Assembly (NCBI GenBank): GCA_047286485.1
Contig: JBJBBH010000005.1
Location: 186,056 to 250,055 of the forward strand
DNA length: 64,000 nucleotides
From: Synechococcus sp.
GTDB taxonomy: Bacteria > Cyanobacteriota > Cyanobacteriia > PCC-6307 > Cyanobiaceae
Reading direction: 5' to 3'
The stretch's first letter is position 1. Each line of letters starts with the position of its first letter. Below the pieces are notes generated by a model that was given only the letters and a program-made list of their open reading frames with translations, searched no databases and had not been told where the DNA came from. Positions 45,214 to 59,964 of the stretch are shown in pieces. A program made the translations under genes and the position numbers.

Positions 45214-48200
45214 TCATGCTGATTGAGACGACGAAGTCGTTGAGAATTTCTTTTTCAATGCCACGTACAGCGTGGGCACGATAAAAAGACTCGTTAATGC
45301 TGCCATGAAATATCCACCAAATAGAACTGTTCCGATCGATCTTTGTGCTAACCCTCCAGCCCCTGTGGCTGACATCAAAGGTAAAAATCCTGCCAATGCA
45401 GCAACAGAAGTCATCAAGATCGGTCGTAAACGTCTTGAAGCAGACTGTTGTACAGCGTCGGTGATTTGGCAGCCCTTGTCTTTGTATTGATTTGCCAGAG
45501 CAATGATCAGGATTCCATTTTTTGCAGCCAAACTGATCAATGCCATGAAAGCAAATTCCGCAAAAATATTGAGGTCGAGGCTGTTCGCTGTTAAAAACAA
45601 GAACGAACTGACGAATGCAATTGGAATGGAAGAAATCAATACGATTGGGTCTATAAAGCTGTTGAATTGCGTGCAAAGAATTAGATAAGCCATCACCAAT
45701 CCTGCAGCCAGGACGTTCACAAGAAGTGATTTGGATTGCACTTCAGTACGCGCCAAGCCTGCCCAGTTTTGACTGATGTTTGGGAAGTCTAGTTGCTTAA
45801 AAGTAGACTTCAATTTGTCAATCGCTTGACCATTGCTGGTTGAAGGGGAAGGCTGTGCCTGAATGGGAACAGCCCGTCTTAGATTGAAGTGACTGATGAT
45901 ATTGGGAGAATTGACTTGTTTAATTTCGATCACTTCTGAGAGAGGGACTAAATCCCCCCTCCTTGATGGGATATAGACTTGGTTCAAGCTCTTTTGGATC
46001 TCTGTCTGACTGCTTTCGGCTTGCACATAAATCTGACGGTATTGGCCGCTTTCGTAGGTGTTGTTGACAAAGCTGCTTCCATACAGAGCACCTACTTCAT
46101 TCATGGCTGTTTGATAATCAACATGAAGTGAAGCCATTTTTCTCCGGTCTGGCTCAAGAAGTAAGGCAGTTGATTCGAGGTCTGAAGGAGTATCGATAGA
46201 GCTGAATTGGCGAGTCTTATTATTGCTATTTATAAATGAATGTGCGATGTCTGATAAATCATCGAAGCTATAACCACGGTTGCTTTCATCCACCAGAAAG
46301 CTGTGGATGCCTCCTTCAACACTGAAGCCAGGTACCGCAGGTGGTGGCACTGCCAGGACTTCAGCATTGGGAATCTTTTTGAATCGTTGATTGAGTTTTT
46401 CAAGAATGATCGATGCATTTTGTGAATGCTTTGTTCGTTCTTCAAAGGGTTTCAGGCCGAAGAAGAACACGCCTTGATTTGGTGATGAACCATGAAAGCC
46501 TGTACCACCAACCAACGCACCATCAACAATTTCAGGTTCATTGGCTAATATCTTTTGTGCTTGATGAGCAACATCCATGGTTGCCTTCAGAGAGGCATCG
46601 CCTGCTAATCGAATGGTTCCCAGTCCATAACCTTGATCTTGTTCGGGAATAAAACTTTTAGGATATGAGCTAATCAAGATGATCGTCATGACGAGACTGA
46701 AAAGAATGATGGATACAACCAGACGACCCTTGATCATGAACTGTTCAAGGGTTATTTCATAGCCGCGAGAAATTCTGGTCACCAAGTAATTGATGAAACT
46801 AAAAATCGATTGCTGGTACCAGCCGATCAGAATTCCAATCGATGTGTAAAGTAATATGGGGGTAGTCTGAAAAGAAAGCATCCCATAAATTAAACCGATC
46901 GCACCACAAATTGATGCAGATCGACCGCGGAAAAAGGTACTTTTCCCCTTTTTAAGCAAAACCGAGCACTGCAAAGGTTTGCCTGTTATTGCATTAAATG
47001 TGCTTACGATGATGCAGAAAATAACGGTGATTGAAATCCCCCTGAAGATGATTCCTGCTGGACCAGAGATTGCTATGGCTGGTAAAAATACTGCTATTAA
47101 AGCAAAAGCTGTTGCAATGATTGGAGACTCTAATTCCGCCATTGCCTCCTTAGCGGCATTTTTTGGGTCTGCGCCAGCATCAATTTTTGCAGAGATTGCT
47201 TCGACAACGATGATTGCATCATCGACGACCAATCCGGTTGCAAGACTAAATCCAATTAACGTTAAACTGTCAATGGCAAATGAAAAGAGGTTCGTTAATG
47301 CAACAGCACCCAAGATAGAAACTGGTAGTGCTATCAATGGGATTAATGTTGACCTCCAGTCTTGAAGAAACAGGAAAATGACCAGGATCACCAAAATGGC
47401 GGCATCGCGCAGGCTTTTTTGAGCCCCATTCAGTGAACTTTTTACAAAATCGGCCTGATCAAATATTTTTTTGATTTCGACTCCTGGCGGTGTCGATGAA
47501 CTGAGTGAGGTGATGTAATCATCAATTCTTCTTGAGGTGTTGACTGTGTTGTAGCCAGGCTGTTTAATAATTCCAAACGACAGTGACGGAGTTCCGTTGC
47601 TACTAGAAATAGATTGCTCGCTAAGACTTTCAAGAGAGTACTGTACTTGGCCAACATCGCTTAAATAAACAATTCCGTCGGCATTTTGATCAATTTGTGG
47701 GCCCACTGAGTCGGTGCCAGCTTTCACAATGAGCTGGCTTAATTCTTCAACACCTTCTAGATTTCCGTCAATTAATAATGGAATGGTGGTGGTAACATTG
47801 CTGGTGAACGGGGGGCCACCAACGAGACCACCTTTCATGATTTGATTTTGAGCTTCGAGCGATTCAATGATGTTTGCCGCTGTTAAATTGTAGCGTTTGA
47901 GTTTCTGCGGATCCAGCCACAGCCTGTAAGCAGGCTTTGAGCCGCCAAGCAAAATGACCTGGCCAACACCTTTCAGGTTTGACAAGCTATCTGAGATTTC
48001 TAAATCGTAAAATCCGTTTAGGAAATTTTTATCATAAGAACTATCCCCCATCTCAATGTTGTAAACCTGTAAATAACTGAGTTCGGATTCTTTGACTGTT
48101 GCACCTTGAGCTGAAACTTCTTTTGGCAGCTCGGCCATTGCTGTTTGCACGCTGTTTAAAACATTCACCTGATTGGCAGCTTCATCAGTATTGGATTCGA

Positions 48201-48486
48201 ATACAGCACGGATTGTGCTAACACCATCACTGCTGCTGTTCGACATCAAATAGTTCAGGCCTGGAACGCTATTGATATGCCGTTCCAAAGGAGTGGTCAC
48301 TGACTTTTCAACGATCTCTGCATTGGCTCCTGGATAGATGGCCACAACCTCAATCGTTGGTGGTGCGATATTGGGAATGCTTTCAATCGGTAAATTGGAG
48401 ATTGAAAACAATCCTGACAGGATGATGAATAGACTCAGCACTGCACTGAGTACAGGTCTCTCAATAAAGTAATCAGCAATTTTCAT
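45214..48486 (-). CDS. RND efflux permease (AcrB/HAE1 family)
   Basis: FI.RPV.S.V.S, P.E..P.IAPP, GLVVDDAIIVVE, AKNGILI, RLRPILMTS. Confidence 0.95.
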   Translation of the reverse strand: MKIADYFIERPVLSAVLSLFIILSGLFSISNLPIESIPNIAPPTIEVVAIYPGANAEIVEKSVTTPLERHINSVPGLNYLMSNSSSDGVSTIRAVFESNTDEAANQVNVLNSVQTAMAELPKEVSAQGATVKESELSYLQVYNIEMGDSSYDKNFLNGFYDLEISDSLSNLKGVGQVILLGGSKPAYRLWLDPQKLKRYNLTAANIIESLEAQNQIMKGGLVGGPPFTSNVTTTIPLLIDGNLEGVEELSQLIVKAGTDSVGPQIDQNADGIVYLSDVGQVQYSLESLSEQSISSSNGTPSLSFGIIKQPGYNTVNTSRRIDDYITSLSSSTPPGVEIKKIFDQADFVKSSLNGAQKSLRDAAILVILVIFLFLQDWRSTLIPLIALPVSILGAVALTNLFSFAIDSLTLIGFSLATGLVVDDAIIVVEAISAKIDAGADPKNAAKEAMAELESPIIATAFALIAVFLPAIAISGPAGIIFRGISITVIFCIIVSTFNAITGKPLQCSVLLKKGKSTFFRGRSASICGAIGLIYGMLSFQTTPILLYTSIGILIGWYQQSIFSFINYLVTRISRGYEITLEQFMIKGRLVVSIILFSLVMTIILISSYPKSFIPEQDQGYGLGTIRLAGDASLKATMDVAHQAQKILANEPEIVDGALVGGTGFHGSSPNQGVFFFGLKPFEERTKHSQNASIILEKLNQRFKKIPNAEVLAVPPPAVPGFSVEGGIHSFLVDESNRGYSFDDLSDIAHSFINSNNKTRQFSSIDTPSDLESTALLLEPDRRKMASLHVDYQTAMNEVGALYGSSFVNNTYESGQYRQIYVQAESSQTEIQKSLNQVYIPSRRGDLVPLSEVIEIKQVNSPNIISHFNLRRAVPIQAQPSPSTSNGQAIDKLKSTFKQLDFPNISQNWAGLARTEVQSKSLLVNVLAAGLVMAYLILCTQFNSFIDPIVLISSIPIAFVSSFLFLTANSLDLNIFAEFAFMALISLAAKNGILIIALANQYKDKGCQITDAVQQSASRRLRPILMTSVAALAGFLPLMSATGAGGLAQRSIGTVLFGGYFMAALTSLFIVPTLYVALKKKFSTTSSSQSA

Positions 48487-48490
48487 TTTT

Positions 48491-49561
48491 TTAATTGATC
48501 AGCATTCCATTGCTTAGTAGGCGTGGATTTTCTGCCACGACTTTGTCTCCAGCTTGCAGTCCTGATATCACTTCTGATTGACCATTTCCACGAGTGACAA
48601 CTTCGATAGGTGTTTGTACGGTGATTCGACCTGTGAACCCTTTTGGTGTGTTGATTTTGCGCCCTAAACGTTGTTGGGCTTCTTTGATGCCAACCGCTTT
48701 GAACACAAAATCTTGCCCCGCATTGCGAAACACAGATTGGGATGGAATTAACAAGGAGCTTTGAGAGTCGCCTTGAATTTCGACCGTAACTTTTTGATGA
48801 TGCTTTAGATTCCCTCTCTGGTTTATAAACAATGCTTTGATCAGGAATGTTTGTGTACCTTTGTTGATCGAGGGACTAATAAAGCTGATGCGACCCTCTC
48901 CGATCCGACGGCCTCCCTGTTTTGAGAGTAAAGCAACAGGTTCGTTCATTTGGATGATGCCTGAAAGTGAGACTGGAATATTCACTCTTGCTTCAAGTAC
49001 TGAATTGTCGATGATGTTAAAAATTGGCTCGCCGATACTTGTAATGCTGCCTTGCTTGATGTCGATTGATGTCACGGTTCCTTTTATTGGAGAGGTGATG
49101 ATTTTGTAATCTTGCAGAGCTTTTAAGGATTCTTTCAGTGCCAGACTGCTTTCGGCTTTCGTGACATATTCGTCTCGCGTCTTCTTCGAAACAGCACCCT
49201 GTTCATTCAGGTATACGTATCGTTGGGCGTTTTTGGTGTCAAGCCTCGCTTTTGCGATTTGAGCTTCCTTTAATTTCTTTTCATTCATCTGTTCAAGTGT
49301 GTAAAGGAGTTGCCCTTTATTAACCTGATTGCCTTCTTGAACATCAACCGACCGTATTCTTCCAACAACCTGAGCCGCTAGCTTGACATTATCCTTGGCT
49401 TCTAGCGTGCTTTGGAAAGTGAAGACATTGTTGGTTGGCTTTGATGTTGCCGTCACAACACTGAAATCATGGATGATGGCGCTGTTGTTATTACTTACGC
49501 ATCCTGTGATTACCAAAGTTGACGCAATGATGAGGACTGGCTTTTGAATTGAAGACCTCAT
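48491..49561 (-). CDS. RND membrane-fusion (periplasmic adaptor) lipoprotein
   Basis: Lipobox LVITGC, G.I..V.V.EG..V.KGQ.L, I.SP..G.V, IP..SV, EV.SGL..GD.VV. Confidence 0.92.
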   Translation of the reverse strand: MRSSIQKPVLIIASTLVITGCVSNNNSAIIHDFSVVTATSKPTNNVFTFQSTLEAKDNVKLAAQVVGRIRSVDVQEGNQVNKGQLLYTLEQMNEKKLKEAQIAKARLDTKNAQRYVYLNEQGAVSKKTRDEYVTKAESSLALKESLKALQDYKIITSPIKGTVTSIDIKQGSITSIGEPIFNIIDNSVLEARVNIPVSLSGIIQMNEPVALLSKQGGRRIGEGRISFISPSINKGTQTFLIKALFINQRGNLKHHQKVTVEIQGDSQSSLLIPSQSVFRNAGQDFVFKAVGIKEAQQRLGRKINTPKGFTGRITVQTPIEVVTRGNGQSEVISGLQAGDKVVAENPRLLSNGMLIN

Positions 49562-52641: not shown

Positions 52642-54147
52642 ATGACGCAGACGCTCCATTCCCTTTTGAAAGCGGTTCTGCTTCCAGTGCCGGTCGAGCT
52701 ACCCAATTCACCGGTCACCTCCATCACCTGTGATTCACGCAAGGTCTCAAACGGCTGCCTGTTCATTGGTCTCCCCGGTGAGAGTGTGGATGGCGGGCGC
52801 TTTTGGAGGCAGGCGCTGAATGCTGGTGCGGTGGCAGCCCTGATCGGGCCTGAGGCGGCGAAGTTCGATCCACCCACGGACCAAGAGCCTGTGCTGGTGA
52901 TCCCCGAGCCAGTGGCCCATTGGGCCGGTGAGCTGGCTGCAGCGTTCTGGCAGCAACCGTCATCCCGGATGCATCTCATCGGCGTGACCGGCACCAATGG
53001 CAAGACCACGACAACCCATTTGATCGAACATCTCAGTCTTGAGTGTGGTCGTCCTGCGGCGCTGTTTGGAACTCTGGTCAACCGCTGGCCTGGACAAAGC
53101 GTGACCTCCACCCACACCACAGCAGTGGCGGATCAGCTTCAGGCCCAGTTGGCCGAAGCGTTGAACCGGGGGACACAGGTCGCGGCCATGGAGGTGAGTT
53201 CCCATGCCCTGGAACAGCAACGGGTTGCGGGCTGTCGTTTCTCCTCAGCCGTGTTCACCAACCTCACGCAGGACCATCTCGACTACCACGCGTCGATGGA
53301 GGCCTATTTCGAAGCGAAGGCGCTCTTGTTTGCCGACCCCTTGCTGGTCGGGGAAGGGCCCCGGGCCGTGGTGAACGTGGACGACAGCTGGGGCCGACGT
53401 CTGGCGGATCGCCTCGGTGAGCGCTGCTGGCGCTGCAGCCTTGAGGAGAAGGCCGATCTCAGCATGCGTGATTTGGAGATGACATCCAGCGGTGTGAAGG
53501 GGCTGTTGATCACACCCCGAGGGGAAGGACGTTTCCATTCGCCCCTGGTGGGTCGCTTCAATCTGATGAACGTGATGCAGGCCATTGGCTCGCTGCTTCA
53601 ACAGGGCCTTCCGCTGACCCTGTTGTTAAAGGCTCTTCCTCACTTCCGTGGTGTGCCTGGGCGTATGGAGCGCGTGCTGCCCACCTCCCCTTTTGCAGAT
53701 CAGCTCCCCGCCGTTGTGGTGGATTACGCCCACACCCCCGATGGCTTGCGCAGTGCGCTCCAGGCCAGTCGCCCTTTTGTGGATGGACGCCTGGTGTGTG
53801 TGTTTGGTTGCGGGGGAGACCGCGATCGGGGCAAGCGTCCTCAGATGGCCTCCATTGCCGCAGAACTGGCTGACCGCGTTGTGGTGACCTCCGACAATCC
53901 ACGCACGGAGGATCCTCAACGCATTCTCGATGATGTGGTGGCGGGTCTTGCTTCAGGCATCGACTACCAGGTGGAAGCCGATCGAGCGATCGCGATCGCT
54001 CAGGCGATCGCTGCGGCCCGGCCCGGAGACCTTGTTCTGATTGCGGGTAAAGGTCATGAGGACTATCAGATTGTTGGCACCGAAAAGCTGCATTTCGATG
54101 ACCGAGAAGAAGCGGAGCGGGCGCTCAGGAAACGCGTGGATGCCTAA
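52642..54147 (+). CDS. murE: UDP-MurNAc-tripeptide synthetase
   Basis: [65 protein letters not shown]. Confidence 0.97.
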
Positions 54148-54229
54148 AGAGTCTGTCGTGAAAAATGTGCTTTTGGCCAGGCTGCCTGTTCTGTCAGTGC
54201 CAGTGAAAATCGATCGAAGTTGGCTGGCT

Positions 54230-55165
54230 TTATTGCTGAAATGTTTTTAAGGGGCGTCGGTTTGATGAGGGTACCTGCTTTGCTGTTTTGATCAGTTGAT
54301 TCAGCTGTTCGCAAACCAATTTGGGGCGTTCCATCTGGATGAAGTGGCCGCTCTGAGCACTTAAAATCCTGCTGTGAGGGTTCTGGTTGAGCCATTGCTT
54401 TTGCAGGGCATGCCAATCTCCCTTGATTGGAGCGCTGTCGTTCATTTCGGTAGAGGAAACGATGACGATTGGAAATGTGTTGCTCATGAGAGGTAGCTCT
54501 GCCACTTGCTTTTTCGTCTTGTGAAATCCTTTCTGTTGATAAAATCCATCGGCTGTGATTCCGTTGTTTTCGCTTTGTCTTGAAACGCCGTATAGCTTGT
54601 AGGCTTCTCTGCTGGGGATTTCTCCAATTGCTCTGAGGGCGACGTCAAATTTTTTTTGAATCCGGTCTGAATACAGGAAATTGCTCGGCACCGGATCAAC
54701 CATCAGCATGCCGGCGACTGAATCGGGGTGTTTGCGTGCAAAATATCCTGCATAGATTCCACCGTAAGAGTGTGAAACAAGGATGTATGGTGATTTGATC
54801 TGATTTCTTTCGAGAAGTTGGATGAGTTTTGAGTTGACCAGTTCCGCTGTGATTGGATTTGCGGTAGAGACGCTTAAATCTGGTGAGCTTTTGCCCAGGC
54901 CGCTTCGGTCATACAGGAACAGATTGCCGACTTATTTGATGCACTCAAAGAACGTTTGGTTTGCAGACCATGCTTCTAATGATGATCCTGTGCCGTTTTG
55001 AAAGACGATCGTGCCTTTGAAGCTTGAATGAGGATTTGGGTGATATTGCGAGTGCAAAAGACTCCCATCAATTTCTGTGAAATTGACCTGAGCGGAAGCC
55101 TGAAAGGCGCAGAAATAAGATGATGAAATGATTAGTTTTTGGAGTGTATTTTTGATGCCTTTCAT
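54230..55165 (-). pseudogene. Secreted alpha/beta-hydrolase interrupted by one in-frame TAA at 54932-54934
   Basis: Frame continues through the stop: FFECIK*VGNLFLYDRSGLGKS...ILVSHSYGGIYA...MLMVDP...SGHFIQ; 312 codons in total; AT-rich. Confidence 0.88.
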
Positions 55166-55178
55166 GGTTCTCTTGGGG

Positions 55179-56381
55179 CTAGCTGCTCATCGCTGACAGC
55201 ACCCGAATTTGATCGATGAGTTGCGCCATGTCGCTGTGATTGGTGCAGATATGGGTGCAGGCACGCAGGCAGATGGGATCTGCCAAATCACGGATCCAGA
55301 TCTGTTCTGTGCCCAGTGCTTTCACCACCTCAGATGGTGTGGCCCGCGTTGCCTCAGGGTGCATCTGAAAACTGACCAGGCCAGCGGGGGGTGGACCTTC
55401 AAGCAGCGGTGAGATTCCACCAAGCGATTGCAGATCTCTCCACATCTGTTCACTGAGGGTGCGGATGCGCTCGAGTCGATCGCCATCCGAGCCTTCCTGC
55501 TCCAGCAGGTCAAGAGAGCAGCGCAGACCAGCCATCAATGGCACGCAGCTAGTGGCCACCTCGAAACGACGGCTGTCGTGATGGAAGGGGTCTGGATCAT
55601 CAGCCACAGCCCGCGTTTCATCCTGCAGGCTGCGCCAGCCGATCACGGTGGGATGGGCTTCCGTGAGCATGCGCTCTGAGAGTGCCACCCCGCCGAGCCC
55701 CTCCGGACCACAGGCCCACTTGTGCCCGGTAAAGGCATAGATGTCGGCCGCTTGTGCCGCCTCTGCAACGGGGATCTGGCCGACGCTCTGTGCAGCATCC
55801 ACAAGGAGGTAAGGCTGTGCCGGGTGCTGTTGCAGTTGTGCCGCCACCGCGGCGATGGGCATCTGTTGACCGGTGTTCCAGAGCAGATGCGACAACACCA
55901 CCAGTCGCGTTCGGCTGGTGAGTTGTTGTTCGAGTGCCGTGAGTACCTCGCGATCGGTGCGTGCCTGCTGATCGCGTCCGAGCCTGAATTGCTTCATGGG
56001 CAGCGTGTTGACCTGAAGCTGGCGGCGACGCGCCAGTTCGTGGCAGGCCGCGACGACGCCGGGGTGTTCACAGTCGCTGATCAGAATGTGGTCGCCATCG
56101 TTCAGGGGAAGGCCCCAGAGCGGCAGCACACACCCAGTGGTGACGTTCTCGCTCAGGGCGAGCCGATGCGCTGGCACATTGCACAACCGGGCCAGACGGC
56201 CGCGAGTTTTGCTCACTTCAGAGCTGATGTAGGGCCAGATGTCGGTTGTGAAGGGGCCCAGTTCCTGGATCCGTTTCCAGCTGGTGGTGATGGCCTCCAG
56301 CGAGGGTGTTGGCAGCGGCCCCTGCCCGCCGTAGTTGAAGTAGGTCTTGTTGGCCAGTGCGGGGCAGAGTTCTCTCAGCAT
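55179..56381 (-). CDS. Class V PLP aminotransferase (CefD/cysteine-lyase-like)
   Basis: YFNYGGQGP, NVT.G, EHPG, SH.LWNTG, VDAAQS.G, TGHKW..GPEG.G. Confidence 0.88.
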   Translation of the reverse strand: MLRELCPALANKTYFNYGGQGPLPTPSLEAITTSWKRIQELGPFTTDIWPYISSEVSKTRGRLARLCNVPAHRLALSENVTTGCVLPLWGLPLNDGDHILISDCEHPGVVAACHELARRRQLQVNTLPMKQFRLGRDQQARTDREVLTALEQQLTSRTRLVVLSHLLWNTGQQMPIAAVAAQLQQHPAQPYLLVDAAQSVGQIPVAEAAQAADIYAFTGHKWACGPEGLGGVALSERMLTEAHPTVIGWRSLQDETRAVADDPDPFHHDSRRFEVATSCVPLMAGLRCSLDLLEQEGSDGDRLERIRTLSEQMWRDLQSLGGISPLLEGPPPAGLVSFQMHPEATRATPSEVVKALGTEQIWIRDLADPICLRACTHICTNHSDMAQLIDQIRVLSAMSS

Positions 56382-56542
56382 TGGGGATCGGGACCTGATC
56401 TCATGATCGCCCTTGGATTCATGCTGTGCTGCACCAGCTGCCCTTGGATGGGGTGGGTCCCAAGTTCAAGACATGGCTCTTCTTCGGAGTGTTCAGCTAC
56501 GCCATGGCTACGTTGCGTTTGTTCGTTGGGTTGGTATCACCG

Positions 56543-57262
56543 ATGGCCCTGGTGGACTGGCTCTGGATTCTTCACCCCGTGCTGGCCGTGGTGTTGATCT
56601 ATCCCCTCATTGGGATCGTGATCCGACTGGCGATGCAGACACGCACCCGGCGATTGAAGACCGCGAAATCGCCTCCGACGGTGGGGCGCGACCACAGCGA
56701 TCTCGGCCGTTGGCTGGCTGCAGGTGTGGTTGGGGTCGTGATCGTTGCGCTGATTGTGGCCATCGCCACCCATGCGCCCCTCGATCAGTTTCAAGGTGGC
56801 TTCACCCGTGCTTTCACACTTCTGCTGGTGCTGATCGGAACCCTGCTCAGTCTTGGGGCGCTCTGGATTGCGAAGGCACCTGGCCTGCGGTTGGCGTTTG
56901 CGCTGATCACGTGGGCTGGTGTTCTCGGCCTGGGAGCTCAGCCTGAGGTGTGGCGATTGTCCGACGACCCTTTCTCGCCAGGGTTCTGGCAATCCCATTA
57001 CTGGTCTGGTGTGGCCGTGGTGGGCTTGATGCTCTTTTCTCTCGGTGCCCGGCCGGAGATCCTGCGTGATCTGCGCCTGCGCCGTCTGCATGTCACCGCC
57101 AATGTGCTGGCAGCGCTGCTGTTTGTGGTGCAGGGTGTCACCGGCACCCGCGACTTGCTGGAGATTCCGCTGAGCTGGCAGAAGCCAACGATCTATGGCT
57201 GCAATTTCGAGGCTCGCAGCTGCCCGCCGTTTGCCCCGCTTCCTTCGGCACCCACTCCTTAG
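56543..57262 (+). CDS. DUF4079-like membrane protein (second paralog)
   Basis: HPVLAV..IYPLIG...RL...R.RRL, H.D.GRW, WQSHYW.G, R.LHV..N. Confidence 0.78.
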   Translation: MALVDWLWILHPVLAVVLIYPLIGIVIRLAMQTRTRRLKTAKSPPTVGRDHSDLGRWLAAGVVGVVIVALIVAIATHAPLDQFQGGFTRAFTLLLVLIGTLLSLGALWIAKAPGLRLAFALITWAGVLGLGAQPEVWRLSDDPFSPGFWQSHYWSGVAVVGLMLFSLGARPEILRDLRLRRLHVTANVLAALLFVVQGVTGTRDLLEIPLSWQKPTIYGCNFEARSCPPFAPLPSAPTP

Positions 57263-58509
57263 AGAGGAGTTCCGCTGCCATGAGCACAGTGCTGCCCTGC
57301 TGAATCCGGATGATCCGGATTCCAGGGCTCAGGTTCAATCACTCCGAAATCCTTCACCACCTGGAAGTTCCCCGTGTCATCGGCTTGGCCAAGCAGGGAG
57401 CGCTGGTTCAGGTGTTGGCTGGGGGTGATCGTGACCAAACCCCCCGGGGCTGCATAGCTGGTTCCGATCAGCTGCTGACGCACGTCTTGGGGATTGGTGC
57501 TGCCTGCCCGTTCCACGGCGCGAGCCCAGAGATGCACCAGGCTGTAAGCCGCTTCAGCGGGGTCGTTGACCACCCTGTGGAAGCCGTAGCGACGACGGAA
57601 GCGCTGCGCGAAGGATTTGGAGCTCTCTGCGTCCAACGATTGGAAATAGCTCCAGCTGGCATAGGTTCCGGAAATTTTTTTCGGACCGATCGCTAGAGCT
57701 TCTTCCTCCGAAACGGACAGGCTCAAGAGCGATACACCGCGATCGACCGCTTGCGCTCCAACAAGCCCATTGCGGTAAAGCTGTTCAAAGAAGGCGAGGT
57801 TGCTGTCGCCGTTGAGCGTGTTGACCACAACAACCGGACCGCTTGCGCTGGCTTGCCGAATGCTGTCGACCAGTGGCTGCACCGCTGCACTGCCGAATGG
57901 GATGTAGCGCTCATCCAACACCGTTCCACCCTCCCGTTGCACCTGGGCACGCATGATGCGATTGGCGGTGCGAGGGTAGATGTAGTCGGATCCGATCAGC
58001 AGGACGCGCTTGCTGCGGTTGGCGAGCATCCAGCTCAACGCGGGTTCCGACTGCTGATTGGGAACGGAACCGCCGTACACCACCTGAGGAGAGCACTCCT
58101 GCCCTTCGTATTGCACGGGATAAAACAGCAGTGCATCCCGTGTTTCCAGAACCGGCAGCATCGCTTTGCGACTGGCCGAGGTCCAGCCTCCGAAGATGGC
58201 CACCACCTGGTGTTCATCCAGCAACTCTTCGGCCTGCTGAGCAAAGGTGTCTGGATCCGACATGCCGTCTTCCTCGATCGGCTGAATCAAGACGCGTTGG
58301 CCATTGAGCCTCAGCCCGCCGCTGGCGTTGATGTCCTCGATGGCCAGCCGTTCGGCCTCGGCAACAGTGTTTTCCGACAGGGCCATCGTTCCGCTGCGGG
58401 AATGGAGCAGGCCCACGCGCACCAGCTTGTTGCCGGGTGTGGAACTGCCCTGCCCGCAACTGCTCACCAGCAGTGTGATCAGCAGGGAGATCAGCGTCTT
58501 TCGCGTCAT
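57259..58509 (-). CDS. UrtA-like urea/short-amide-binding periplasmic lipoprotein (orphan)
   Basis: Lipobox LVSSC; G.LHS.SGTMA.SE, WTSASRK, YPVQYEGQECS, PNQQ, GSDY.YPRTAN, NTLNGDSN, YFQS, NDP.EAAY. Confidence 0.9.
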   Translation of the reverse strand: MTRKTLISLLITLLVSSCGQGSSTPGNKLVRVGLLHSRSGTMALSENTVAEAERLAIEDINASGGLRLNGQRVLIQPIEEDGMSDPDTFAQQAEELLDEHQVVAIFGGWTSASRKAMLPVLETRDALLFYPVQYEGQECSPQVVYGGSVPNQQSEPALSWMLANRSKRVLLIGSDYIYPRTANRIMRAQVQREGGTVLDERYIPFGSAAVQPLVDSIRQASASGPVVVVNTLNGDSNLAFFEQLYRNGLVGAQAVDRGVSLLSLSVSEEEALAIGPKKISGTYASWSYFQSLDAESSKSFAQRFRRRYGFHRVVNDPAEAAYSLVHLWARAVERAGSTNPQDVRQQLIGTSYAAPGGLVTITPSQHLNQRSLLGQADDTGNFQVVKDFGVIEPEPWNPDHPDSAGQHCAHGSGTPL

Positions 58510-59645
58510 CGACTTCCCCAGCTGATCAGCGCGGTCAGCACCAGCACAGCGGACGAGATGATCTGAAAGCGCAGGTCAGCTCGATTGATCCGGCGCATGG
58601 TCTCGAGCTTCCGATCGTCGGGCGCGTCGGCATAGGTGTTGTACCCCCATGTGAAGAGAGCGAACAGGGCCATGGCGATCAGATAGCTGGCGGTGAACAA
58701 ATCATCGAGAAAGGTGGTGTAGGGCAGTTTCGGCAGCGACGAGTGATACGACTGCTGCAGAAAGATGAGTGTGAGCAGTGCCGTGGATGGGATGGCGAGT
58801 CGCACATCAGACAGTGTTCCCTCAACCGACGGCGCCATCAGCACAATCGAGTTGATGATCATCAGCGGGATCACCCAGTTCACGATCCCAGGCCAGAGAT
58901 TCGACTGGTAAACCACTTCCAGCCGCACCTGGCTCATGTGCGGTCGATACCAGGTGCCCCGGCGGTTGTTGGTCCGTCGCAGATAGGGCGTGAAGCTGGC
59001 GCTTTCCAGTTGATAACCGCTCAGTGATCCAAGCTCACCCACAAGGTTGTCCTTGCTCGGCTCAGGCAGCAGGCGCACCTCTTCGTATTTCTGAGACGTC
59101 CAGAGTGGTTTGAGTTCAACAATGATCGGCAGCCGCAGAATGTCGAATGGGTCACGGCGGAAGTCGACTTGATCGTCATAGAACCGGCTGGAGAAGTGAT
59201 AAAGCTGCTGGCGCCGGCCACCAGAAAGCTCCCGTGGTGCATCCGTGGAGGGTTCGAAGGTTGAGTCCCACGTTTCAATGCGGTTGGCCAGTTCGATCAG
59301 CCCAGCAGGATCGTCGCCATGTTTCTGCAGCAGGGCTTCCACCTCGGGTAACCACTCCAGCCAGATCTCACCGTCAGCGGTGAAGGTGCGCGAGTTCAGA
59401 TTCAGCTCATAGATCTTTTCGAGATGGATCCCGGCATAGATAAACGGATGCTCGCGCACCAGCTCCTCGGAAAGCCGCACTTCTTCCAGGCCTGACGGAC
59501 CTTCCATCAGTTCCGTCACCGCGCTGGGATGGAGCGGCTTGGTGGGTCCTTGGCCAATCAGCCCACGTCCACTGAGCATCAGCGCGATGCTGAGTGCTGC
59601 CATCAGCACCAACGCGAAAAGGCGTGGACGGGGCATCCTCCGCAT
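58506..59645 (-). CDS. Prokaryotic pentameric ligand-gated ion channel (Pro-loop receptor, ELIC/GLIC-like)
   Basis: Hydrophobic N-terminal leader; beta-rich ECD with F.ADG.IWL.W and DFRRDPFD; four TM helices; M2-M3 loop SSLPKLPYTTFLD. Confidence 0.85.
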   Translation of the reverse strand: MRRMPRPRLFALVLMAALSIALMLSGRGLIGQGPTKPLHPSAVTELMEGPSGLEEVRLSEELVREHPFIYAGIHLEKIYELNLNSRTFTADGEIWLEWLPEVEALLQKHGDDPAGLIELANRIETWDSTFEPSTDAPRELSGGRRQQLYHFSSRFYDDQVDFRRDPFDILRLPIIVELKPLWTSQKYEEVRLLPEPSKDNLVGELGSLSGYQLESASFTPYLRRTNNRRGTWYRPHMSQVRLEVVYQSNLWPGIVNWVIPLMIINSIVLMAPSVEGTLSDVRLAIPSTALLTLIFLQQSYHSSLPKLPYTTFLDDLFTASYLIAMALFALFTWGYNTYADAPDDRKLETMRRINRADLRFQIISSAVLVLTALISWGSR

Positions 59646-59718
59646 CAACCGGCGCTCGTGCCTTCACTGATGACTTCAGGATGGCTTTTGGCGCTGAGCC
59701 TGTCAGTAGGGAACCTGT

Positions 59719-59964
59719 TCAGAGAACCTGAACCACCTCACTCACTTCGGGGATGGATTCACGCATTTTGCGCTCGATTCCCATCTTCAGGGTCATGGTG
59801 CTGCTGGGGCAGCTTCCGCAGGCACCCTGCAATCGCACTTTGACCACCGGTCCATCGATCTCCACCACTTCCACGTTGCCGCCATCGGCCATCAGGAACG
59901 GGCGCAGTTCATCGAGCACCTTTTCCACGTTTTCAGTGGTGAGCGGCATTGTTTCGGTGCTCAT
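59719..59964 (-). CDS. nfuA: NifU-like Fe-S cluster scaffold/carrier
   Basis: [32 protein letters not shown]. Confidence 0.92.

Follow-up and report, generated by a model that had tools for sequence, protein, structure and literature searches.

A conserved gene pair encodes a divergent pentameric ligand-gated ion channel and a UrtA-type urea-binding lipoprotein in Synechococcus and other bacteria

We describe a two-gene module in a 64,000-nucleotide stretch of the Synechococcus sp. contig JBJBBH010000005.1 (the window). One gene encodes a very divergent subunit of a pentameric ligand-gated ion channel (pLGIC, or Pro-loop receptor), and the other a lipoprotein from the UrtA family of urea-binding substrate-binding proteins (SBPs). 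This is a genuine, conserved and so far unannotated module, and a plausible function can be proposed from its sequence: the membrane-tethered SBP would capture urea and gate or modulate a cation-selective channel, a reading that we hold with moderate confidence. It is supported by the identities of the two proteins, an intact urea pocket, gene linkage in both orders and the absence of Urt transporter genes, whereas we infer the docking, the direction of gating, the selectivity and the output, and our confidence in the whole is accordingly no more than moderate. An earlier, sequence-only reading of this DNA had proposed a dedicated sensor of this kind. Its protein identities, pocket, synteny and missing Urt genes stand, while the link that it drew to swimming chemotaxis is unsupported.

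Results

The channel is a divergent pLGIC

Curated models miss the channel. No Pfam family matches it at E ≤ 1, Neur_chan_LBD and Neur_chan_memb included, and NCBIfam LGIC_1 yields 12.1 bits against a cut-off of 500, so that the profile match expected by the sequence-only reading was not found. Standard pipelines consequently annotate the protein as “hypothetical”, and all named homologues in the databases carry the same label. In contrast, a direct phmmer search of the PDB aligns ELIC (4twd) with channel residues 72–348, across both the extracellular and the membrane domains (E 3.4e-7), followed by GLIC and GABA-A subunits. A profile of 30 homologues also retrieves ELIC (E 6.5e-6), with an E-value no better than that of the single sequence.

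The AlphaFold2 model, built on 30 homologues with a pLDDT (predicted local distance difference test) of 77, comprises an N-terminal helix (residues 7–31), strands between ~54 and 249, and helices at 251–271, 280–304, 313–341 and 344–379. Foldseek places this model closest to sTeLIC (9ex6; E 1.9e-18, TM-score 0.76), then GLIC and DeCLIC, and the top 50 PDB matches are pLGICs without exception (E ≤ 2e-16, probability 1.00). We take these direct sequence and fold matches to override the missing Pfam and NCBIfam match and, judging by sequence and modelled fold, the protein is a real but very divergent pLGIC subunit.

The model and the motifs FRRDPFD and LPKLPYTTFLD bear out the architecture first read from the translation, namely a leader, a beta-rich ectodomain, a Pro-loop, four transmembrane helices and an ELIC-like M2–M3 loop (Table 1). 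Within the Pro-loop, F163, R165, P167 and F168 are invariant in the 30 homologues. The Pro-loop proline is the most conserved position of the superfamily (Jaiteh et al. 2016). The beta-sandwich domain carries the family-invariant motifs RTF(T/S)ADG, NRIExWDS and FSSRFYDD. The hydrophobic leader is poorly conserved among homologues and may be either a signal peptide or an anchor. No extra ligand-binding domain precedes the channel core, which begins at about residue 52 after leader and linker, and the best 150 relatives are all 484 amino acids (aa) or shorter. The channel clade forms a distinct cluster at 50% identity.

Pore and ligand-site conservation

The M2 pore helix is the most conserved part of the channel family, with column identities of 0.95–0.96. 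An acidic −2′ residue (D/E281), R283 (0′), A285 (2′), T289 (6′), L292 (9′), F296 (13′) and Q299 (16′) are invariant or 97% conserved. R283, T289 and L292, which are invariant, supply the basic 0′, Ser/Thr 6′ and Leu 9′ positions typical of a pLGIC in a register taken from the low-identity ELIC alignment. The selectivity filter of GLIC is an acidic −2′ ring. The acidic −2′ ring, the 6′ Thr and the 9′ Leu of this invariant helix therefore suggest that the channel is probably cation-selective.

The ligand site presents a different picture. The ELIC agonist contacts Y38, E131 and F133 align with channel residues E94, K180 and L182, whose conservation is only 0.30–0.43. This low conservation is suggestive of sensing through a partner and not through the classical site. 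It bears on a rival explanation that we consider rather unlikely: the channel would itself respond, at the classical pLGIC sites, to a small molecule, pH or Ca2+, and the SBP would be an accessory that concentrates or hands over ligand, tunes gating or aids assembly. In the part of the literature drawn on here, bacterial pLGICs respond directly to their stimulus (protons for GLIC, amines for ELIC, Ca2+ depletion for DeCLIC), and many invariant extracellular motifs of the present family (WDS, FSSRFYDD, GY) could form a site. Fused or operonic periplasmic-binding proteins (PBPs) have also been proposed to pre-concentrate ligand for the channel's own site (Tasneem et al. 2004, PMC549065). However, few positions in the family vary as much as those aligned to the ELIC contacts, urea is ill suited to cation–π recognition in an aromatic box, and the tight, near-stoichiometric coupling of the two genes in both orders points to an obligate partner.

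The partner is a UrtA-family lipoprotein with an intact urea pocket

The SBP matches Peripla_BP_5 (PF13433) at E 2.2e-125 and the PDB UrtA entries 7s6e, 8hic and 7s6f at E ~1e-113; its match to AmiC is at E 1e-51. On TIGR03407, the UrtA model, it scores 443.5 bits, under the equivalog cut-off of 492.75. Together with the pocket and the lipoprotein signal described below, these matches uphold the assignment of the partner as UrtA-type, and the motifs on which that assignment was originally made (GGWTS, FYPVQYEG, QECS, GSDY, NTLNGD and a C-terminal Cys) are all present in the translation.

Nine residues around urea have been defined by the crystal structure and mutagenesis of Prochlorococcus UrtA (PMC10392092). 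We transferred them by motif from the MIT9313 numbering of that study through the 8hic alignment (Table 1). The equivalents of MIT9313 W120, S122, Y141, Q144, E146, Y190, N246 and S274 are all kept, and MIT9313 position 192 is Tyr in the SBP, as it is in the sampled canonical cyanobacterial UrtAs. In fact, all nine pocket residues are invariant in 59/59 distinct channel-linked partners. Because the pocket is intact and invariant among the partners, urea is most likely the ligand of the SBP, as far as sequence can predict it. The Cys pair is similarly conserved, the first Cys in 59/59 partners and the second, C408 in the window SBP, in 55/59.

A lipobox was recognised by regular expression in 53/59 partners, the rest having variant boxes or over-extended starts, and many proteobacterial partners carry Asp at lipobox +2. 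We note that canonical cyanobacterial UrtAs have a lipobox as well, so that lipidation does not distinguish the two kinds of protein within cyanobacteria.

The pair is a conserved unit across phyla

We gathered 93 related loci and located both genes in them by tblastn. A contig scan with one protein returned only close Synechococcus relatives, and the wider taxa come from protein searches and a metagenome scan. Channel homologues 47–98% identical to the window protein occur in marine Synechococcus (BIOS-E4-1, UW179A, PROS-7-1, MEDNS5, WH7803, WH8017 and MIT S9507), in freshwater picocyanobacteria, in Pseudomonadales and in contigs assigned to Myxococcota (metagenome-assembled genomes).

The SBP gene adjoins the channel gene in 77/93 loci: on the same strand with the SBP first (51 loci) or the channel first (22), or convergently (4). 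At 15 of the other loci the SBP was not seen and the contig is cut on at least one side, and at a single locus, in MIT S9503, it is absent with both flanks present. The expectation that the pair would prove syntenic and not specific to one strain thus holds well beyond picocyanobacteria. Searching from the other side gave a concordant result, since three SBPs chosen only by their tree position (P0231, P0217 and P0143) each adjoin a gene of channel size without a Pfam match.

The junctions are equally tight. Of 59 non-redundant same-strand junctions, in either gene order, 34 overlap (33 of them by 4 nt) and 15 leave gaps of 1–3 nt. The CGATGA junction recurs in 17 non-redundant cyanobacterial loci, 4-nt overlaps are found also in 16 loci of the opposite order, and the junctions at L001, L005 and L094 agree with database gene calls. 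Chance adjacency of channel and SBP, considered as an explanation, is ruled out by the 77/93 loci and the overlapping junctions.

Both genes are under purifying selection (dN/dS, the ratio of nonsynonymous to synonymous substitution rates, 0.06–0.22). Their pairwise divergences correlate with r 0.91, or 0.81 for pairs below 80% identity, a correlation to which shared ancestry alone contributes much. No third gene is common to loci of different phyla. The SBP gene is therefore linked, in 77/93 loci and three arrangements, to a membrane protein that is not a transporter, as expected of SBPs that serve in signalling. From these sequence comparisons, we think it probable that the two genes encode one functional unit.

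Several loci depart from the usual pattern. In a freshwater lineage (L032–L035 and Synechococcus sp. CS-1330, L098) channel and SBP are convergent, and the SBP is 79–88% identical to canonical UrtA and only ~50% to the window SBP; its sequence suggests that it was replaced by, or recently derived from, the transporter's own UrtA. At the MIT S9503 locus (L012, 5650–6680), nifU is followed by a channel remnant covering residues 2–207 and then by a frameshifted piece to ~229, with no SBP, DUF4079 or aminotransferase gene in the 6 kb beyond. This looks like a natural loss of the whole module. At another freshwater locus, L031, an opposite-strand open reading frame (ORF) downstream of the channel resembles a carbon–nitrogen hydrolase, its translation having been judged by eye.

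Of the more distant pLGIC relatives, P0241 lacks both an adjacent SBP and any obvious partner. An upstream 326-aa gene without a Pfam match overlaps the gene for P0246 (313 bits) by 4 nt. The contig of P0242 is too short to show its context, and P0241 and P0246 are too few to generalise from; other clades of the group may use different, unrecognised partner proteins.

The pair loci lack urea importer genes

We searched the 64-kb window with UrtB, UrtC, UrtD, UrtE, UreA, UreC and UreG queries from a canonical locus (tblastn, E ≤ 1e-3) and found none, in agreement with the earlier statement that no urtBCDE genes lie nearby. No urtB, urtC, urtE or urease genes were found beside the pair loci either, and the lone urtD-like match near a pair is a 33%-identical ABC ATPase ~4 kb away (L076). 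At the canonical control locus (L099, Cyanobium NIES-981) the order is ureABC-ureDEFG-urtABCDE; the window SBP, in contrast to such a UrtA, is not encoded beside UrtBCDE.

Synechococcus WH7803, which carries the pair (L009), is particularly informative. A published survey tabulates this strain with one UrtA, no UrtB–E, no UreA–G, no urea carboxylase and no allophanate hydrolase, and states that it does not grow on urea and lacks urease activity (Veaudor et al. 2019, PMC6737895). We infer that its sole tabulated UrtA is the channel-linked gene. Since UrtB–E and the genes of urea catabolism are missing, the WH7803 SBP has no ABC importer to supply, and the strain could make no use of any urea taken up. 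Service to a distant UrtBCDE, which the first reading had named as an outcome that would refute it, does not apply to this strain. The notion of sensing usable nitrogen is too simple, given that WH7803 cannot use urea at all (PMC6737895).

The same evidence bears on the possibility that the pair is a urea conduit, in which the SBP would feed urea to a pLGIC-derived pore for ATP-independent, binding-protein-dependent uptake or release. The SBP is transport-type with an unchanged urea pocket, the channel occupies the place beside urtA normally held by urtBCDE, and small neutral solutes could fit through an open pLGIC pore. We nevertheless consider a conduit improbable, as uptake would be pointless in WH7803, a high-affinity SBP is of little benefit to a passive pore, and the invariant charged rings of M2 (D/E at −2′, R at 0′) are hallmarks of ion selection.

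Other strains have been tabulated differently: WH8102, WH8103, WH7805 and WH8016 have two UrtA copies and single UrtB–E (PMC6737895). Candidates for the extra copy are the channel-linked gene and the phage-associated “orphan” urtA (Ford et al.). Picocyanobacterial “orphan” urtA genes, with unresolved partners, may according to one suggestion rely on ABC machinery other than their own (Ford et al. 2021).

Such counts are the background to a third alternative, that the SBP is a second UrtA for a distant UrtBCDE, for example a variant of different affinity, and that its adjacency to the channel reflects co-regulation or accident. The two urtA copies of several marine Synechococcus (PMC6737895) and the suggestion of other ABC machinery for the orphans (Ford et al. 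2021) would agree with it, as would the single alignment column that distinguishes partner SBPs from canonical UrtA and the closeness of the freshwater partners to the latter (79–88%). It is refuted for WH7803, which has no UrtBCDE (PMC6737895). Moreover, the two genes stay adjacent in several phyla, in three arrangements and with junctions that overlap, and where the channel is truncated, in MIT S9503, the SBP is gone too. We regard this alternative as very unlikely. In strains that do have UrtBCDE, the SBP could conceivably play a dual role, by analogy with maltose-binding protein, which works with both MalFGK and Tar.

Partner SBPs compared with canonical UrtA

For the phylogenetic comparison with canonical UrtA foreseen in the sequence-only reading, a neighbour-joining tree was computed without proteobacterial canonical UrtAs and without an outgroup. 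It did not resolve the backbone, and we dropped the claim that channel-linked SBPs form a single clade apart from canonical UrtA. Freshwater partners nest beside canonical UrtA, and the proteobacterial partners are ~62–64% identical to canonical cyanobacterial UrtA.

Several observations weigh against an SBP-gated urea sensor. One alignment column alone (L127 in the partners, F in canonical UrtA) separates channel-linked SBPs from canonical UrtA, and no docking surface is obvious. In the freshwater lineage of L031 (725–1885) and L101 (6001–7113), the channel is 58–61% identical and has no adjacent SBP; the 6 kb upstream and the 1.5 kb downstream of it contain none. WH7803 is non-motile and unable to catabolise urea, which leaves the benefit of sensing urea unexplained. 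Consensus scans, which are weak for cyanobacteria and say little, found no sigma-70-like promoter, no convincing terminator and no NtcA-type site (GTA-N8-TAC) near the module. Finally, both the numbering of the pore and the comparison of agonist sites depend on an alignment of low identity, with a HMMER accuracy of 0.68–0.70.

Because of the convergent lineage with its 79–88% identical SBP, the channel-only lineage, the one discriminating column and the unresolved tree, we consider that interaction with the channel may already be within reach of an ordinary UrtA, much as a single maltose-binding protein serves MalFGK and also Tar. If so, the SBP of marine Synechococcus would appear to be a fast-evolving, dedicated paralogue.

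Discussion

Proposed mechanism

Taken together, we propose that the SBP is exported and lipid-anchored on the outer face of the cytoplasmic membrane, where its pocket, which is the same as in UrtA, would bind urea. The urea-loaded, closed SBP would then dock on the extracytoplasmic domain of a homopentameric pLGIC, and not on UrtBC, and would open the pore or modulate it. External urea would thereby be signalled as an ion flux or an altered membrane potential, and would not be taken up.

An additional suggestion of the sequence-only reading concerned chemotaxis. To our knowledge, only clade III strains of Synechococcus swim. The module is found not in these but in WH7803 and its relatives, and the chemotaxis link is accordingly not supported.

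Relation to known systems

The predicted fold and topology of the channel are those of ELIC, GLIC, sTeLIC and DeCLIC (Foldseek E 1e-17 to 1e-18, TM-score up to 0.76), and it shares with them the Pro-loop F-x-x-x-P-F-D, the ELIC-like M2–M3 loop, the 6′ Thr, the 9′ Leu and a very short M3–M4 link. It differs in being only 15–20% identical, in its unconserved agonist-site positions and in its coupling to a separate SBP gene. We know of no characterised bacterial pLGIC (ELIC, GLIC, sTeLIC or DeCLIC) that needs a separate binding protein.

Bacterial pLGICs that are fused to PBP-I domains, or that lie in predicted operons with PBP-II or Cache proteins, have been described and proposed as chemoreceptors (Tasneem, Iyer, Jakobsson and Aravind 2004, PMC549065). 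There too, a PBP fold is tied to a bacterial pLGIC and presumed to supply the ligand specificity. In the present module, however, the PBP is stand-alone, unfused and lipid-anchored, and belongs to the type-I UrtA family and not to PBP-II. Those systems are, like the function proposed here, predictions. A later survey lists a Synechococcus pLGIC without mention of “periplasmic”, “binding protein” or “operon” (Jaiteh et al. 2016).

With the UrtA of UrtABCDE (8HIC, 7S6E, 7S6F), the SBP shares ~50% identity, the fold, the nine pocket residues and the Cys pair. In contrast, the window SBP falls under the TIGR03407 cut-off, and SBPs of this kind adjoin a channel and never urtBCDE, and occur in a genome without UrtBCDE or urease. 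AmiC of the Pseudomonas AmiC–AmiR system (1PEA) is likewise a UrtA-family protein that senses small amides and does not transport them. AmiC is cytoplasmic and controls an antiterminator, whereas the window SBP carries the export signal of a lipoprotein and is paired with a channel.

The reuse in trans of a transport-type SBP for ligand recognition is familiar from SBP-dependent receptors (maltose-binding protein–Tar, LuxP–LuxQ, TorT–TorS). Known signalling outputs of SBPs comprise chemoreceptors, sensor kinases, cyclic di-GMP enzymes and Ser/Thr kinases, and a 2021 review never mentions an ion channel (PMC8050422). In ionotropic glutamate receptors and GluR0, a PBP-fold clamshell that closes on its ligand opens an ion pore, as proposed here. 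Their clamshell, though, is fused into a tetrameric P-loop channel, whereas here it would be a separate polypeptide acting on a pentameric pLGIC.

Significance

The association of PBPs with pLGICs has been known as a prediction since 2004. What we did not find described is the combination of a stand-alone lipoprotein of UrtA type, a distinct pLGIC clade, a defined ligand, a cross-phylum distribution and presence in an organism that does not use urea. Full-text literature searches for pLGIC with UrtA or SBP terms returned nothing relevant, and no description of the module or of control of a pLGIC by an SBP in trans. Tentatively, then, this may be the first pLGIC with a separate, lipid-anchored SBP as a trans-acting ligand sensor, a bacterial “ionotropic urea receptor”. 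It would be a two-gene cassette spread among planktonic cyanobacteria, gammaproteobacteria and Myxococcota, and it would work also in organisms that do not metabolise urea, for which urea would be an environmental or self-produced signal and not food.

GLIC and ELIC serve as the principal structural models of neurotransmitter receptors, yet what bacterial pLGICs do physiologically has still to be established. In this natural module the stimulus can be predicted (urea), the partner is defined and one host, WH7803, is genetically tractable, which makes such a role directly testable. If the SBP gates the channel, ion channels join the targets of SBP signalling, from current reviews of which they are absent, and the principle by which a clamshell drives a pore in glutamate receptors would be realised non-covalently on a Cys-loop-type scaffold.

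The module also explains at least one class of picocyanobacterial “orphan urtA” genes. Counts of urtA in genomes and metagenomes overestimate the capacity for urea uptake: WH7803 is scored UrtA-positive and yet cannot use urea.

Genomic setting of the module

The coordinates of the pair and of its features are collected in Table 1. The 4-nt overlap between the two genes, which had been noted before, is confirmed by the letters of the plus strand.

Table 1. Features of the channel–SBP module in window coordinates (position 1 is the first letter of the window)
Feature	Position	Strand	Basis or detail
Channel gene	58506..59648	-	380-aa ORF; start TTG 59648 or first ATG 59645
UrtA-family urea-binding lipoprotein (SBP) gene	57259..58509	-	416-aa ORF
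ATGA junction, channel TGA and SBP ATG sharing 4 nt	58506..58509	-	plus-strand letters TCAT
Channel N-terminal leader, residues 1–31	59556..59648	-	AlphaFold2 helix 7–31, low-confidence linker 32–51; hydrophobic
Channel extracytoplasmic beta-sandwich domain, residues ~52–250	58899..59495	-	secondary structure, invariant columns, per-block conservation
Channel Pro-loop (beta6–beta7), F163-R-R-D-P167-F168-D169	59142..59162	-	read directly; aligns to ELIC FRLFPFD
Channel M2 pore helix, residues 280–304	58737..58811	-	most conserved stretch; register from ELIC alignment
Channel M2–M3 loop, LPKLPYTTFLD	58704..58736	-	read directly; aligns to ELIC LPRLPYTTVID
SBP lipoprotein signal peptide, lipobox LVSS-C18	58456..58509	-	predicted from sequence
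SBP segment with the nine urea-pocket residues	57715..58185	-	W109, S111, Y130, Q133, E135, Y176, Y178, N233, S265

The GC content of the module, 0.58–0.62, is the same as that of its surroundings, and a recent horizontal acquisition in this genome is ruled out by this host-typical value. The module is flanked by genes for NifU, Mqo, a VTT-domain protein and Fe-ADH on one side, and for DUF4079, a class-V aminotransferase (Aminotran_5) and MurE on the other.

Between the stop of nifU (59719..59964, minus strand) and the channel start lies a gap of ~70 nt (59649–59718) in which we found no promoter-like or terminator-like site, and the module may be co-transcribed with nifU. On the far side, the gene for the DUF4079 membrane protein (56426–57262, plus strand) converges on the SBP gene, their ends overlapping by 4 nt. 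A DUF4079 gene also follows the module in WH7803, MIT S9507 and PROS-7-1, lies ~1.5 kb off in freshwater L032 and is absent from the proteobacterial loci. The adjacency is probably lineage synteny, although the DUF4079 protein could conceivably be a third component specific to cyanobacteria.

Elsewhere in the window, a low-GC islet (54100–55200; GC 0.46–0.50 against ~0.61 around it) contains two adjacent minus-strand ORFs of 77 aa (54932..55165) and 159 aa (54230..54709). They read as an N-terminal and a C-terminal fragment of a single, split gene resembling an alpha/beta-hydrolase; the 159-aa ORF has no Pfam match, and the gene is possibly decayed and horizontally acquired. Further away (45214–49561, minus strand), a gene for an AcrB-type RND pump (1090 aa) is preceded by one for a HlyD-family membrane-fusion protein (356 aa), an ordinary efflux pair unrelated to the channel–SBP module.

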